Below, in pieces: positions 57,944 through 64,000 of a stretch of 64,000 bases of DNA. The position numbers were made by a program, and so were the translations under genes. Source of the DNA: Pseudobdellovibrionaceae bacterium (GTDB lineage Bacteria; Bdellovibrionota; Bdellovibrionia; Bdellovibrionales; UBA1609); assembly GCA_030591685.1 (NCBI GenBank), contig JAUVAX010000008.1:1-64000 (forward strand), in the 5' to 3' direction. The notes beneath the pieces are model-generated. The model was not told the DNA's origin. It worked only from the letters and a program-made list of their open reading frames with translations, and did not search any database. Each line of letters begins with the position of its first letter. Position 1 is the stretch's first letter.

Positions 57944-59038
57944 ATGAAATTCCTCACTTTATTAATTACTCTTAATGTAGCTTTAGCCTCGTTGGCCCAG
58001 TCAGTGGGGTTCCAAAAGAATGATCTGTTTGCTGACCTCTTTAAGTACAGCTACAATTCATCAAAACTTATTAAAAGCGAATTTTATAATCTAGCAGATT
58101 ATATGATGTCAGAATGTGAAGCACATGATCATAAACTAAACTTTCTATGTGAGTTCCCCATCTCGGTCTCTGAATTCAGGCAAAGAGAACGTTGGATTAC
58201 TGAAAATACGCTTGATCCTATGAACCCATTAAGTGGCGGTCAAATTTATCTAGCTCAGGATGAATGGACAGATCATGATATAAGGACTCTCAGCTGGAGT
58301 CTCGGCCTTGCACTTACAGGATTAGACGAACAAACATCTATTGTAAAAAAGACTCTAGGTTGGTTACTCCTAAAGGAATCTGTAAAGTTTGAGGCTAAAA
58401 AACTAAAGGACCTCTTTAAATGGCGATCATCCAAAAAAGCCTATCAATTGGAATATACTTCTCTACCGCATATAATATCGAGTTTACAGAGCCCCTACGC
58501 TTTTTCTCAAGCCATCGACTTTGCCGAACAAATTGAATGCAGAGATCTTGTGATTTGCCTTGATATAAAAAGAGCACTGAAAAATATGGCCATAAATAAC
58601 ATTTTAAACCCAAGTATTATGGGAAAATCTAAAGCTATTTTGAAGGGGCTAAGGGCGGAGAACGAGTATACCTCTGGCCGAGTAAAAGTGGCCTTTGAGA
58701 GGGTCAGCCTTATAAAGAAATTAAGTAAGGCTGTCTATGAGAAAAAAGACATGGGGGATAACCAGCACTTACTTAATACTCTTGTCGAAGTATTAAAAAG
58801 GGATGTTGTTTCATATAGAAGGCTCACCCTTTCGTTACATATAATTAAATTAGAAACTCTAATTGAATATCAAGAGAAGTATAAAAACCAAGTAGTCACA
58901 AAAGATTTACCTTATATAAAAAACTACCCCGGGTATAAATTATTAGAGGATAAAATTAAAAATGACATCATAGAAACATTTAGAGTTCTGTCTCATGAAT
59001 TAGAAAACACACAAAATGGCCTTGAAAATGGAGGGTAA
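57944..59038 (+). CDS. secreted hypothetical helical protein (operon gene A)
   Basis: Signal ending SLA; SD AAGGA; two Cys pairs. Confidence 0.8.
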   Translation: MKFLTLLITLNVALASLAQSVGFQKNDLFADLFKYSYNSSKLIKSEFYNLADYMMSECEAHDHKLNFLCEFPISVSEFRQRERWITENTLDPMNPLSGGQIYLAQDEWTDHDIRTLSWSLGLALTGLDEQTSIVKKTLGWLLLKESVKFEAKKLKDLFKWRSSKKAYQLEYTSLPHIISSLQSPYAFSQAIDFAEQIECRDLVICLDIKRALKNMAINNILNPSIMGKSKAILKGLRAENEYTSGRVKVAFERVSLIKKLSKAVYEKKDMGDNQHLLNTLVEVLKRDVVSYRRLTLSLHIIKLETLIEYQEKYKNQVVTKDLPYIKNYPGYKLLEDKIKNDIIETFRVLSHELENTQNGLENGG

Positions 59039-59039
59039 A

Positions 59040-60218
59040 ATGAAAAAGCATAAATATATAAACACAAGTCTATCTTTAGTAGTACTTTTAACCTTAAGTG
59101 CTTGTACAAAAAAACAACATGATGATTACCCTGCTCAACAAAAAAATAATATAGGTAAAAAGATAAACTCAGAGCCGCCGCGCTATAAATATGAATTAGA
59201 AAATATATATAGGCACGTTAAATGGAATATTGAATTAACAGTAAATGAACCCATACACTTTGAGTCAAAAGCTGAATGCATATTCAGCAGTGTATATAGT
59301 GATACTTGTAATTTAAGGGAAATAGTGCGAGTACAGCAAGGGCCTAAAATCTATTACTTAAAGCAGGCACAGCCGGCCTCCGAAGCCTCATCAGCGGTAA
59401 AATTAAATGCAGGTGAGCGAATTTATAAAAAATCTTATAATTTATCTACAATTAAAAAACACAAAGCCGATTTTAAAAGTCTAGAATCTGAATTCTTTAA
59501 CCTTTTAGACAATTCAACACCAGTAAAAATTATTGAATTTACAGACAAAATTGACATGCCTCTCTACAGAAGGGCACTCAAAATACAGTACCACTACCAA
59601 ACGAATCGTTGTAAATCTGAGATACTTACTGAGTTGGCTCAACAGTGCCCTATAAAAAATCGAAGTATATATTTAAGCAACCTGGCTACGAGCCTTTCTA
59701 GTATTCTAGTTCCATCAAACCTACAATTAATTGAAATTGATATTAATAGTTCTAACTTTCTAGGTTTACCGAGGATAAAAAACAACAGACATTACCCGCA
59801 TAATCGATATGCGCCAGGAATTTTTATAGAAAACCCCAGACTTAAAACTGTTCGTATTCAACTGAATAAACTCATTGACGAAAACAACCTTGTTGATTCT
59901 GTCCAGCCTACATTTCAGACGGGTTTAAAGTTTTACTCAATGTTCTGCTCTGATATTTATCAAAGAATATATATCGAGGATCTTGGAAATAAAGATGGGA
60001 GATATTTCTCTGACGATGGAGACTATTATAACAAGGATATCGATTACAAGGCGGGGCAAGAGATTAGTTTAGAATGGGATAAAGAATTTGAAATAGTTGA
60101 ACTTATAAATTTCATATCCGATGATATTTTTAATCCAAAACAAATAGTTAGTTATTTTAATGTTAATTATAAATATGACTTTAAAAAGACCATTAACCTG
60201 GGAGCCCCTTGTGAATAA
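59040..60218 (+). CDS. hypothetical lipoprotein (operon gene B)
   Basis: SD GGAGG, ATG 59040; MKKHKYINTSLSLVVLLTLSA-C lipobox. Confidence 0.8.
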   Translation: MKKHKYINTSLSLVVLLTLSACTKKQHDDYPAQQKNNIGKKINSEPPRYKYELENIYRHVKWNIELTVNEPIHFESKAECIFSSVYSDTCNLREIVRVQQGPKIYYLKQAQPASEASSAVKLNAGERIYKKSYNLSTIKKHKADFKSLESEFFNLLDNSTPVKIIEFTDKIDMPLYRRALKIQYHYQTNRCKSEILTELAQQCPIKNRSIYLSNLATSLSSILVPSNLQLIEIDINSSNFLGLPRIKNNRHYPHNRYAPGIFIENPRLKTVRIQLNKLIDENNLVDSVQPTFQTGLKFYSMFCSDIYQRIYIEDLGNKDGRYFSDDGDYYNKDIDYKAGQEISLEWDKEFEIVELINFISDDIFNPKQIVSYFNVNYKYDFKKTINLGAPCE

Positions 60219-62091
60219 CTAATATATATGTAGACTCAAAAAATTAACTATAATTGCACTAAGTTGCGCTTATACACCAATAGCACTGGGTAATCTATCC
60301 GTGGCAGTTGATGTAGATGTGAGCATGAACCTAACTGGCTCCCTTATGCATCACATAAAGGCCAGTCAATTAGACCCCTGCTGGCGCTTAAATGGAAAGA
60401 GGACGCCGTCAACATATGGTCCTAAAGAGGCAAGTAAAAAAATAAAAATAAATCTAGAGACCTCTAAAACACTCACTTATCATTTATATGCCTCTGGGGT
60501 AAATGCCTCGTCAAGGTTACTAACTCATAAAATTTCTGACGATGGTGAATACCACACACTTAGAAGTTTAACCCTTAAATCAACAATAGAAAAAACTAAC
60601 AATACTGAATCTGTCGAGTTAGACCTATCTGAATTAAGACCCATAGATAATAACAAGGGTCTTGGCACATACTTTAACAATAATACTTGCGAAAGCTTTA
60701 ATTACAATTACATTTTTTCACAACCAAAAATTTCAGGTCATATTTTAGTGAAATATAAAATGCCTAAAAATAGTTACCTAGTTAAGGTCACAAGAACACG
60801 TGCTGAATCACTTTTGTCTATAGAAAACAGTAAGGTTAATGGGTTTAGGGGGCTTAAAAACGCCCTTAACAGAAATCTTGATAAATCAGTGATTAAACAG
60901 ACATACTATATTTGGGCAAAACCCGGCAGCACATTAATACAGGATTTTGAATACAGAGAAATGAAAGATGACTTTAGCGGTCATTTAAAATTTAAATTCG
61001 AACCTATAATTGCGAAAGATGTAAAAATTAATACCAGTTCGTTTCGTAAGTTCACCAAAAAATTAGAAAATCTTCTAATGGCAGTTAACACTAAAGTACA
61101 AATTAAACCTAAGGATTTTCATCTAATAGAAGAAGAATTTGCAGAAGAAATGGCAGGAATTGTAGGGAATGAAGAAAACATACAAGAGATAGCTAAAATA
61201 CTTTCACTTAAAGAGTTATCAAGATTTCTTAATATGTTAATAACGTTAAGGGATTCAAATGTCAATCAGGCCGAATTTTCTACTGTAAAATTGGGCATAA
61301 GTATATTTACCCATCAAATGACTCAGGCCTTATTGGCGGACCTTTTGCCTTTATGTGAAAGTATAACGATAAAACTGCCGTATAAGGATAAAAAAATTAC
61401 TACAGACATGGTTCGAGTTGCGAGTTATTTATTAAAAAAAGCGGCATTGAGGTTAGAAAACACAACCATAAAGCCATTTGAAAGCCTTATTTCAAATATT
61501 TATGAATATCAAAAAAAAGGATTATCATTTAGTCAAATTAGAAATAACATGTCAGAGTACGAAAAAATATTAAAATCGTATTATAATGTCGCGGGCGCCA
61601 TAGATGTAAGGCAAAGTCCGATCAAAGAGGCTTATAATAATATTGCATATATTTTAGATGAAACAAATAAATTAAAAATAAAAAATAAAGACCATGAAGA
61701 CATACTTTTAAAATTAGAGCAGGCGATGGAATTAGAGAATAATTTCACAAATGAGCTGTCTGATTTCATTAGACTATTTTCAGGCACAAACACTGACCCT
61801 ATTAATATATCTGAATTAAAGAGAGGGGCTGAGAATATTGAAAGACTGGTGAATAAAACTATAGAAGAACTTAAATCAAACAGGGGGGTATTTGCAGTGT
61901 CTAATAACGGGGTTCTGTTTGTTTATAACTTCATAGCATCCCTCGGAGCTCATGAAATTGATCCCTTAATAGAGCCGCTGAAATCAGACTTAGAATATTT
62001 CAGACGTGCATTTTATGATCAGAAGTATCTAGTCAAAACATCAGAGAAAATTAAATTATGCCGCCTAGGAGTTGAAAATGAGACAGATTAA
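60211..62091 (+). CDS. secreted hypothetical protein, beta-rich N half and helical C half (operon gene C); in-frame TAA at codon 4 of the probable true start
   Basis: GGAG SD plus GTG 60211, TAA 60220-60222, then in-frame signal-like RLKKLTIIALSCAYTPIALG into the 60301-62091 ORF. Confidence 0.72.
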
Positions 62092-63901
62092 AAATATATT
62101 AACACTAATTATATGTATATCTTTAAGCACGCCAGCTTTTTCTAAAAATGAGTTTATGGAGAACGCTAAGGAGTCCATTGTTGCGGCAAACGAAGCGGCA
62201 GATAATCTGGTGGATACGTTGGTGGCACAGAATATTGCTGGCGCTCTCAATGAGGCTATATCTAAAGTTTCCTCACTAGAGGAGAATAAACACAAAAGAG
62301 ATAGTTTTGTTTTAGCTATGAAGAATCTAAAGATTAAATTTGAGAATTTTCAATCTAAGCCGCAAGATAGTTATGAAGTCACTAAAGAGGCCATTGAGGT
62401 GGCCTATGCTCAGTATATTAACTATTATAGAGAGGTCATGGATAGCTCATGGAATCCTATTTCAATTGACCATCAATTTAAATCATTACCTAAAGTTTTG
62501 TCCTCAACACTGAGTCATATTAGGGAGCAATGCGATGCGGGGATCTCGATTGATAATTTTGAGAATATAGTTCAGTCTTCAGAGGATTTACCGAAATATG
62601 AGTTTGATTGGGAGATAATGTTAAATCTTTCAGCAGATTATACCCCAAGTTACGCCGACTATCAGGCTTATAACTATTTAGAAGAGAACAGCACTCGTAC
62701 ATTTTTATTTGATGCCTCAAAGTATGCCTTTGCAGGGTCTACAGGCGTTGCAAGCATTCAGGGGGCGGCATATTTAAATACTTTTATGGCCGGCGGGACA
62801 CTGGCTTCAGCCGAACTCACTGGCGCAATAGGTACGGCCTCTAATGCTGCAATGGCAATTATGCCTTACGCCGCTGCAGCTATGGTTGTAATGGCTCTTA
62901 TCATGGACATCTCAGCAAGAAACAAGTTAGACAAGTTACAAAGACAAAAGGCCGCCGCTGATGTGTATAAAATAAAAAATACAAGGCGATCACAATGGCT
63001 AAAGGCTGAATATGCCACCCGCTGTGAAACAATGAAGGGATTACTAAGCACACTAATTACTGACTTAAATTTTGTAGCTAATAATATTAGTAATCAAAAG
63101 GCGTTGAGTGATTATTATACAAATGACCTTATGGACTTAAAAAATGCCTATAGTAAAATGGAGGATTTCAAAACCGCTAAGCAAATGCTAAAGCTTGAGT
63201 CACTATATAACAAGAAGCTTTGTGTCAGTGAGGGTGTGTATAAAAATATCGACCCAGACCTTTTTGTGTCAGCTAAAAGCAGTATACCTAAGTGTTATGC
63301 CTCTCCAGATAATTCAACCCTACATCTTGTTGACGGCAACCATTCACAACTTTTAATTAAAATTACTAAAAGTGGAAAGTTAGACATTGATCAAAAATTC
63401 ATTCAATCGTCATTGAATGAATTTAAATCTAAGGATGGCGATACGTTTTCTGACAATAAAAAAATATTCGCCACCAATAGCATGTACATAAGGTATAAAA
63501 TTTATGAAATGTTCGTAGTACAAAGAAAGAGTATTATGAATAGTATGAAGTCATTTTCAGGATCATACCTGTCTAAAGTTCAAACGCAGGCTTTTAATAG
63601 ACTTCTAAATTTAATTTCAGTTTATAGAAATTTTAAATCTAGGCCAATTGATAAAATTCTTAATGACGAGCTTGATGCTCAAAAGGAGTATAGTACCTTA
63701 GTCAGTGAGTTTAATGATCTCCTTAACTTAAGTACAAACTATATTTTTGGAAAGGTTAAAAAATCAGTTGTTAGACTTAAGAGCATGGCTTTAAATCAAA
63801 AAATGAGTAGTTTCTATGATAGATACGTATACATCGCTGAGGTTACAGACCTGATGAGAGACTTTAAAGGGTATAAACAATCACTTGGCTTTAAACATTA
63901 A
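62078..63901 (+). CDS. secreted helical protein with long hydrophobic segment; candidate pore-forming or membrane-inserting subunit (operon gene D)
   Basis: SD GGAG, signal ending PAFS; about 60-aa Ala/Gly-rich hydrophobic stretch flanked by coiled-coil-like regions. Confidence 0.78.
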   Translation: MRQIKNILTLIICISLSTPAFSKNEFMENAKESIVAANEAADNLVDTLVAQNIAGALNEAISKVSSLEENKHKRDSFVLAMKNLKIKFENFQSKPQDSYEVTKEAIEVAYAQYINYYREVMDSSWNPISIDHQFKSLPKVLSSTLSHIREQCDAGISIDNFENIVQSSEDLPKYEFDWEIMLNLSADYTPSYADYQAYNYLEENSTRTFLFDASKYAFAGSTGVASIQGAAYLNTFMAGGTLASAELTGAIGTASNAAMAIMPYAAAAMVVMALIMDISARNKLDKLQRQKAAADVYKIKNTRRSQWLKAEYATRCETMKGLLSTLITDLNFVANNISNQKALSDYYTNDLMDLKNAYSKMEDFKTAKQMLKLESLYNKKLCVSEGVYKNIDPDLFVSAKSSIPKCYASPDNSTLHLVDGNHSQLLIKITKSGKLDIDQKFIQSSLNEFKSKDGDTFSDNKKIFATNSMYIRYKIYEMFVVQRKSIMNSMKSFSGSYLSKVQTQAFNRLLNLISVYRNFKSRPIDKILNDELDAQKEYSTLVSEFNDLLNLSTNYIFGKVKKSVVRLKSMALNQKMSSFYDRYVYIAEVTDLMRDFKGYKQSLGFKH

Positions 63902-63971: not shown

Positions 63972-64000
63972 ATGAAGAATTTTTTAAAAATCATATTAGG
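63972..64000 (+). CDS. start of next probably secreted ORF (operon gene E), truncated by window edge
   Basis: AAGGAG SD then ATG; MKNFLKIIL signal-like start. Confidence 0.6.

Follow-up and report, generated by a model that had tools for sequence, protein, structure and literature searches.

The window analysed here, a stretch of 64,000 bases (bases 1-64000 of a 70,889-base contig), ends within a series of genes on one strand, in the order A, lipoprotein B, C, D, E and small gene F, which extends past the window end. By a working definition these genes are a polymorphic toxin system, with toxin and immunity predicted, because a single cluster of toxin cores is combined with interchangeable tips and the immunity genes track those tips. 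Gene D contains a long, nearly uncharged segment, and with a confidence slightly better than even the protein is predicted to be a membrane-inserting translocator that would let the tip of E into the cytoplasm of a target bacterium. The segment had been singled out in an earlier note on this DNA; the larger result is the operon as a whole, in which a module of four accessory proteins is joined to a polymorphic toxin.

The toxin E has 737 aa (contig 63972-66185, + strand, L001:6972-9185), and only its first codons (63972..64000) lie in the window. It consists of a signal-like peptide, a variable region, a coiled coil, a conserved helical core and a C-terminal tip. The last 82 residues match bacterial EndoU above the cut-off (E 1.3e-9; H642, H653, K661), and F (84 aa; contig 66190-66444, L001:9190-9444) matches the MafI immunity protein NF033691, also above the cut-off (E 1.5e-11). 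Orphan cassettes of tip and immunity gene are frequent, though not universal, in polymorphic toxin systems; a search of this genome for EndoU and for full E gave a single match to each. When 22 complete E genes were compared, 21 of the cores clustered together, G413 being the exception, and the last 130 residues fell into 9 clusters. A same-strand gene of 70-291 aa directly follows E in 21 of 21 cases, and these genes cluster only within tip classes. RES tips are present in seven E genes at E < 0.001, some of them below the cut-off, while tips other than EndoU and RES are mostly unannotated; for the tips of G160, G540 and this genome no solved relative was found. In a quick tree of 21 D proteins with long branches, the D of this genome groups with those of G148, G540 and G648 (SH-aLRT 100), despite the fact that these three share one tip class which is not EndoU.

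Tandem paralogous small genes follow E in G140 and G763. One genome (G630) has two operons with different tips (L055, L056), and the E genes at L108:6148-8190 and L109:8850-10921 have very short tips. Behind the tip region of G824 lie an ORF of 138 aa and a hydrophobic gene of 106 aa (Kyte-Doolittle mean up to 2.5), an arrangement that resembles a membrane-acting tip with membrane immunity.

An unindexed search recovered 33 D relatives, including the query, at E up to 0.001. The D profile is found in 33 of 384 genomes of the order (29 strong and 4 weak matches) with a patchy distribution; in another order it matched 4 of 238 genomes, in most cases weakly. The C profile is found in 34 of 301 genomes of the class. 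A word-indexed protein search gave only 2 proteins, and no relatives turned up in pattern scans of contigs from genomes and metagenomes. For 30 proteins that were looked up, four clusters had a named source, all labelled 'hypothetical': a Bdellovibrionales bacterium, Bdellovibrio bacteriovorus W (BDW_12310), a MAG labelled Leptospiraceae, and one record without a taxon. The match in G312 (E 3e-4) was rejected as an apparent false match on a kinase-like gene, as judged by eye; no operon was seen around the match in G636, and the weak matches in G511, G563 and G564 (E 5e-4 to 9e-4) were left out of the locus comparison.

Of the 33 loci compared, 28 have sequence beyond D, and in 26 of these the next gene is E; G621 has a pair of Rhs/YD genes instead, and in G523a D is truncated. 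Upstream sequence is present in 31 loci, and C lies before D in 30 of them. The labels of A-E are complete and in order in 18 loci, and four more have an unlabelled same-strand gene at the position of A or B; the labels come from profiles partly built on the same loci, and pairwise searches of the first six agree with them. Two loci of a further order have A, a lipoprotein-like gene, C, D and E in the same order.

In this genome A-D come after flgK-flgL, and downstream of F there are a 720-aa reverse-strand gene, csrA and fliW. In 12 of 13 relatives csrA lies at most 1.5 kb after flgL (the contig of the thirteenth ends), in comparison with 11.7 kb here. The GC content of the operon is 34.7%, against 40.1% for the genome, and is below that of all 264 tiles of 8.5 kb. 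The insertion between flgL and csrA and the low GC indicate that the operon is most likely an acquired island rather than a flagellar unit. A flagellar role was considered and rejected, the operon being an insertion whose flagellar neighbours are specific to this site. Promoter and terminator counts are at the chance level. The 720-aa gene (contig 66541-68703, - strand, L001:9541-11703), which encodes a signal peptide and belongs to no family, also lies inside the flgL-csrA insertion and was not found near other copies of the operon.

Gene A (57944..59038, +) encodes 364 aa with a signal-peptide-like N-terminus, conserved cysteines and no known family, and gene B (59016..60218, +) encodes a predicted lipoprotein, likewise of no known family, whose lipobox-like motif is LSAC here and LxAC or xGC in relatives. 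Gene C (60226..62091, +) was listed as an ORF of 596 aa from GTG 60301. Its frame is open upstream to ATA 60226, and the family profile matches from 60268; the non-standard ATA is likely the start, because the upstream frame encodes a signal-like peptide that matches the profile. The model of C (pLDDT 81.2, pTM 0.74) combines a beta domain of long strands with a helical one, and the bundle of the latter gave generic fold matches only, none of them reliable. A secretin fold for the beta domain was rejected, since the best Foldseek E value of 7e-4 went with a TM-score of about 0.10 and an rmsd of 25-29. Residues 1-236 of C (60301-61010) nevertheless gave many weak secretin rows and are a candidate ring-forming domain.

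Gene D (62072..63901, +) is 609 aa long when read from TTG 62072; the likelier start is ATG 62078, six bases downstream of AGGAG. Its N-terminus resembles a Sec signal peptide as judged by eye, and signal-like N-termini recur across its relatives. The AlphaFold model, based on 36 sequences, is a long helical bundle (pLDDT 81.6, pTM 0.60) that includes a beta-hairpin at 178-199 and helices at 207-239 and 254-303, and it is uncertain at 224-260, where pLDDT is below 50. The segment comprises residues 218-278 (62723..62905, +). It was described earlier as about 60 aa with a single charged residue in the middle of a signal-bearing, otherwise charged helical protein, and this description holds: it has 61 aa, E248 is its sole charge, and 56% of it is A/G/S/T, in comparison with 27% charged residues and 24% A/G/S/T in the remainder of mature D. 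Only the end differs, being at 62905 and not at 62906. No 61-aa window with at most one charge occurred in 10,000 shuffles of D, and the low-charge run is the longest among 378 charged ORFs of 400-800 aa in the genome, four of which reach 50. The coiled-coil-like stretch noted after the segment is also present; it is RNKLDKLQRQKAAAD at 283-297, on the predicted helix 254-303 and C-terminal of the segment.

Hydrophobicity was calculated as the 19-residue mean on the Kyte-Doolittle (KD) scale, and means of at least 1.6 were counted as transmembrane-grade. By this measure the hydrophobic hairpin that had been proposed is lopsided. Transmembrane grade is reached by the second limb alone (about 259-278; mean 2.1), whereas the first limb is weak (0.9 here, with a family median of 1.1 and values of at least 1.6 in 4 of 58 relatives), and the model is uncertain at 224-260. 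Across 61 D sequences, a set that includes some near-identical members, the longest stretch containing no more than one charged residue measures 34-90 aa (median 55). A KD window of at least 1.6 is found in 60 of 61 D sequences, but in 1 of 18 for A, 0 of 13 for B, 1 of 28 for C and 5 of 24 for E. Among A-D, a conserved transmembrane-grade segment is therefore found in the sequences of D only. The earlier suggestion that D is the membrane-inserting subunit of the operon agrees with this comparison, the fit being a comparative one and the activity predicted.

Between the end of the strong limb and C318 there are 35-47 residues, and no block of D is better conserved than this limb (column identity 0.46). 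The first limb and the loop are among the least conserved parts (0.23-0.25). These values bear on the proposal that the segment is a buried interface which builds a D oligomer or grips E, with D belonging to a secreted particle and acting there as its chaperone or stalk. The small-residue, marginally hydrophobic first limb is consistent with such a role, as are the poor prediction of the region in the monomer, which would be expected of an interface modelled without its partner, and the fact that D 71-135 weakly resembles EsxB, a WXG100 protein (E 0.0098). However, the sequence of the first limb and loop and the length of the segment vary while the absence of charge is kept, so that the segment suits lipid better than a protein interface, and we consider the interface the least probable of the readings discussed here.

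The orientation of D may be approached through its cysteines. All 58 D sequences compared have C154, G157 and C318, and the number of cysteines C-terminal of C318 is even in 54 of 58. A disulfide between C154 and C318 is inferred from this conservation; it would close a loop (62531..63025, +) that holds the predicted beta-hairpin and then the hydrophobic segment. In a wide fold search, rows 2, 3 and 5 align D from about residue 50 to about residue 520 (rmsd 3.6-4.1), and therefore both halves pack together in the model. Since C154 and C318 are invariant, the later cysteines are even in number, and residues near 50 and 520 share one bundle, both flanks of the segment appear to be on the same, non-cytoplasmic side.

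This has consequences for the view that the segment is a resident anchor, by which D stays in the inner or outer membrane of the producer as a scaffold or export subunit for E. A signal peptide and one strong helix followed, in this clade, by basic residues (net charge +3 just after the strong limb in this D, and at least +2 in 20 of 58) are what an ordinary single-pass anchor would have, and the first limb is weak. Five exported proteins would also plausibly require an export or assembly platform, for which the weak secretin rows of the C beta domain (E 7e-4, TM-score 0.10, rmsd 27) might speak. Against this, the net charge after the helix has a median of 0, and 31 of 58 sequences have no net positive charge there. 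A single pass would moreover separate the invariant C154 and C318, split the predicted bundle of N- and C-terminal parts and place the paired C-terminal cysteines in the cytoplasm, while a resident double pass would require two good helices. A resident anchor is thus regarded as unlikely, although it is the strongest competitor of the translocator.

The earlier note had likened the hairpin to those of ClyA-family toxins, colicin pore domains and T3SS translocators, and had proposed a Foldseek comparison. The comparison partly agrees, in that pores of the ClyA type, SmhB and AhlB, are in the top rows; the first rows are SmhB pore chains with E 0.031, a query TM-score of 0.13 and an rmsd of 19.8, and no match was found at E < 0.001. 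Later rows include colicin Ia (E 0.11), AhlB, AhlC, MakB and ClyA, mixed with unrelated rows. The TM-scores are 0.11-0.17, and the best Z is 8. On realignment with VIA, D matched the ClyA pore with Z 8.0 over 240 residues (rmsd 9.1), the best long alignment to a natural protein, and soluble AhlB with Z 6.3 over 186 residues (rmsd 5.1); the VIA bar for helical bundles is a Z of about 13, and designed bundles outscore the ClyA match. In the wide fold search the matches were generic bundles, and the best 50 include no ClyA chain. Neither were sequence matches found: no ClyA-family chain is among the matches of the D profile to PDB structures at E up to 10, and no ClyA, Hbl or Ahl family was assigned to D in Pfam (36 members) or NCBIfam (58 members). 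Membership in these families is thus not borne out, and the likeness of the D model to ClyA-family pores is a resemblance too weak for it.

These results must also be weighed in considering D as a lytic alpha-pore-forming toxin, a remote relative of ClyA and AhlB with C and A as its partners and E-F as a second weapon. ClyA-family chains do recur in the best fold rows (SmhB, AhlB, AhlC, MakA/B, ClyA and XaxB), and in length (34-90, median 55) and central position the hairpin resembles the AhlB head, which is G176-L234 (PMC6602965). Apart from the missing sequence and profile matches, however, none of C, E and A proved to be a paralogue of D (hhalign probabilities 1.5, 2.5 and 0.3, with matches confined to signal peptides), in which the operon differs from bi- and tripartite toxins, and no intact operon was seen that has D without an E-like or Rhs gene after it. 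Since the genes beyond the window form a polymorphic toxin-immunity locus, a translocator for an enzymatic toxin is favoured over a lytic pore-former, to which we give a low probability, below that of the resident anchor.

Other searches gave little for any gene of the operon. Scans of A-D against Pfam, NCBIfam and PHROGs gave nothing above the cut-off for the genes of this genome, and no family common to more than one member of the D alignments. PDB sequence searches with the profiles of D, C, E and A gave nothing below E 0.009, the leads being that of D to EsxB and that of the E profile to CdiA-CT 7vmc (E 0.11). Atlas matches are at most 0.77, and the Atlas model of P0042 is poor. Four accessory families, A-D, and several tips are accordingly without annotation in the libraries searched.

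EndoU and RES toxin domains act on cytoplasmic substrates. For the EndoU of MafB, activity on such a substrate has been demonstrated (PMC4287609). Since E has an export signal while its EndoU or RES tips act in the cytoplasm, a step of membrane crossing is needed. The translocator is further favoured by the position of E after D, the swapped tips, the conserved hydrophobic segment of D with its apparently non-cytoplasmic flanks, and the likeness of this segment to the AhlB head in length and central position; the fold matches short of significance and the single strong limb with basic residues after it speak against it. With D as the translocator, A-E, all of which have signal-like N-termini, would be exported by Sec and would assemble at or beyond the outer membrane, where lipoprotein B may tether or pilot the assembly, and where C, with its beta domain and helical bundle, and A would likely serve in assembly or target binding. 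D would likely hold its hairpin folded back until contact and would then extend it into the target membrane as a helical hairpin in the manner of alpha-pore toxins, probably as an oligomer. Through this membrane the E tip would pass to cleave RNA, with F as protection for the producer and its kin. Competing bacteria or rival predators may be the likeliest targets, competition among bacteria being favoured because of the patchy distribution, the tip swapping and the immunity genes. It is also conceivable that E crosses the membrane by itself, because its core ends in a Gly/Ala-rich hydrophobic stretch.

The operon may be compared with several known systems. The MafA-MafB-MafI system of Neisseria likewise has an upstream lipoprotein, a Sec-signal toxin with a conserved N-part and a variable tip, and an EndoU tip with MafI-family immunity (PMC4287609). 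It differs in that no E scanned has a DUF1020 Pfam match, that three further conserved exported proteins (A, C and D) are present, D with a putative membrane-inserting segment, and that the phylum is a different one. The ClyA family (AhlB, SmhB, MakA/B, ClyA and XaxB) has a long helical bundle, as does the model of D, and a central Ala/Gly-rich hydrophobic hairpin of about 60 aa (PMC6602965), to which the 61-aa segment of D, with modelled helices 207-239 and 254-303 but a weak first limb, would correspond. By contrast, D is about 600 aa long with extra domains, is linked to genes for an enzymatic toxin and immunity, and has partners that are not its paralogues. In the Streptomyces umbrella particles UmbABC, several signal-peptide proteins are also encoded together with a polymorphic toxin and an immunity gene (PMC11062931); for A-E a single secreted complex is likewise proposed. 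In contrast to UmbABC, A-E have no Pfam matches to ALF repeats or to trypsin-like or lectin domains and the host is Gram-negative, and no subunit comparable to D in its hairpin was seen in the consulted part of that report.

Hydrophobic helical hairpins on long helices are found in T3SS translocators of the YopB/IpaB type and in colicin pore domains as well. T3SS translocators are encoded together with injectisome and chaperone genes and have no Sec signal, whereas D has a Sec-like signal and its operon holds only A-F, without a T3SS or chaperone gene. In colicins the pore-forming domain is a C-terminal globular helical domain that buries the hairpin. The hairpin of D, in contrast, is central, 330 residues before the C-terminus, and D has no colicin Pfam match.

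To our knowledge, it is poorly known how polymorphic toxins exported by Sec cross the target envelope. For MafB the question was left open in the consulted part of PMC4287609. It is directly testable here, because a conserved and dedicated candidate translocator shares the operon with the toxin. No published description of an A-E system was found among listings and abstract openings, nor any paper for the locus tag BDW_12310, and the main text of the PT-TG survey (PMC13483458) does not mention Bdellovibrio, although the supplements of the papers cited here could list such loci. Because the subscription literature was mostly outside reach, the novelty of the system means that no description was found, and is not proven.

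The operon points to toxin-immunity warfare in obligate predators, and a named strain, B. bacteriovorus W, is among the carriers of D relatives. A bolder reading, which we hold tentatively and at less than even probability, is that A-E form a self-contained, Sec-exported antibacterial machine of an undescribed kind, with D, a subunit resembling alpha-pore toxins, as a protein-conducting translocon for swappable enzymatic warheads. If so, the machine would follow the logic of A-B toxins in a helical construction and with bacteria as its targets, rival predators would be killed or prey disabled from the periplasm by predatory Bdellovibrionota, and the same A-D kit would also carry Rhs-type cargo.

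In G621 (L071:9328-13352) E is replaced by a signal-peptide gene with a Gly-rich linker, a charged coiled coil and Rhs/YD repeats over two ORFs, which ends in a glycine-zipper-like tip; C is also split in this genome. The A-D kit may thus carry other cargo, as in G621. Decayed operons are seen at L110:6681-10331, L114:2218-4139, L112:11991-12272 and L113:5295-5930. G651 and G820 have A-B and a cut-off C without D or E, the A-like gene of G820 being short; G425 and G536 have lone C fragments, that of G536 near a contig end; D is broken across two contigs in G523, and there is a stop in C in G630a. Divergent operons of another order, in G763 (L080:5385-14352) and G811 (L079:4062-12272), have C- or D-like genes, the D-like ones with shorter glycine-zipper hairpins, before toxin-like genes. 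The locus of G763 has a PT-TG match (E 1.3e-10) with two paralogous small genes, and that of G811 has a weak TNT match (E 0.043).
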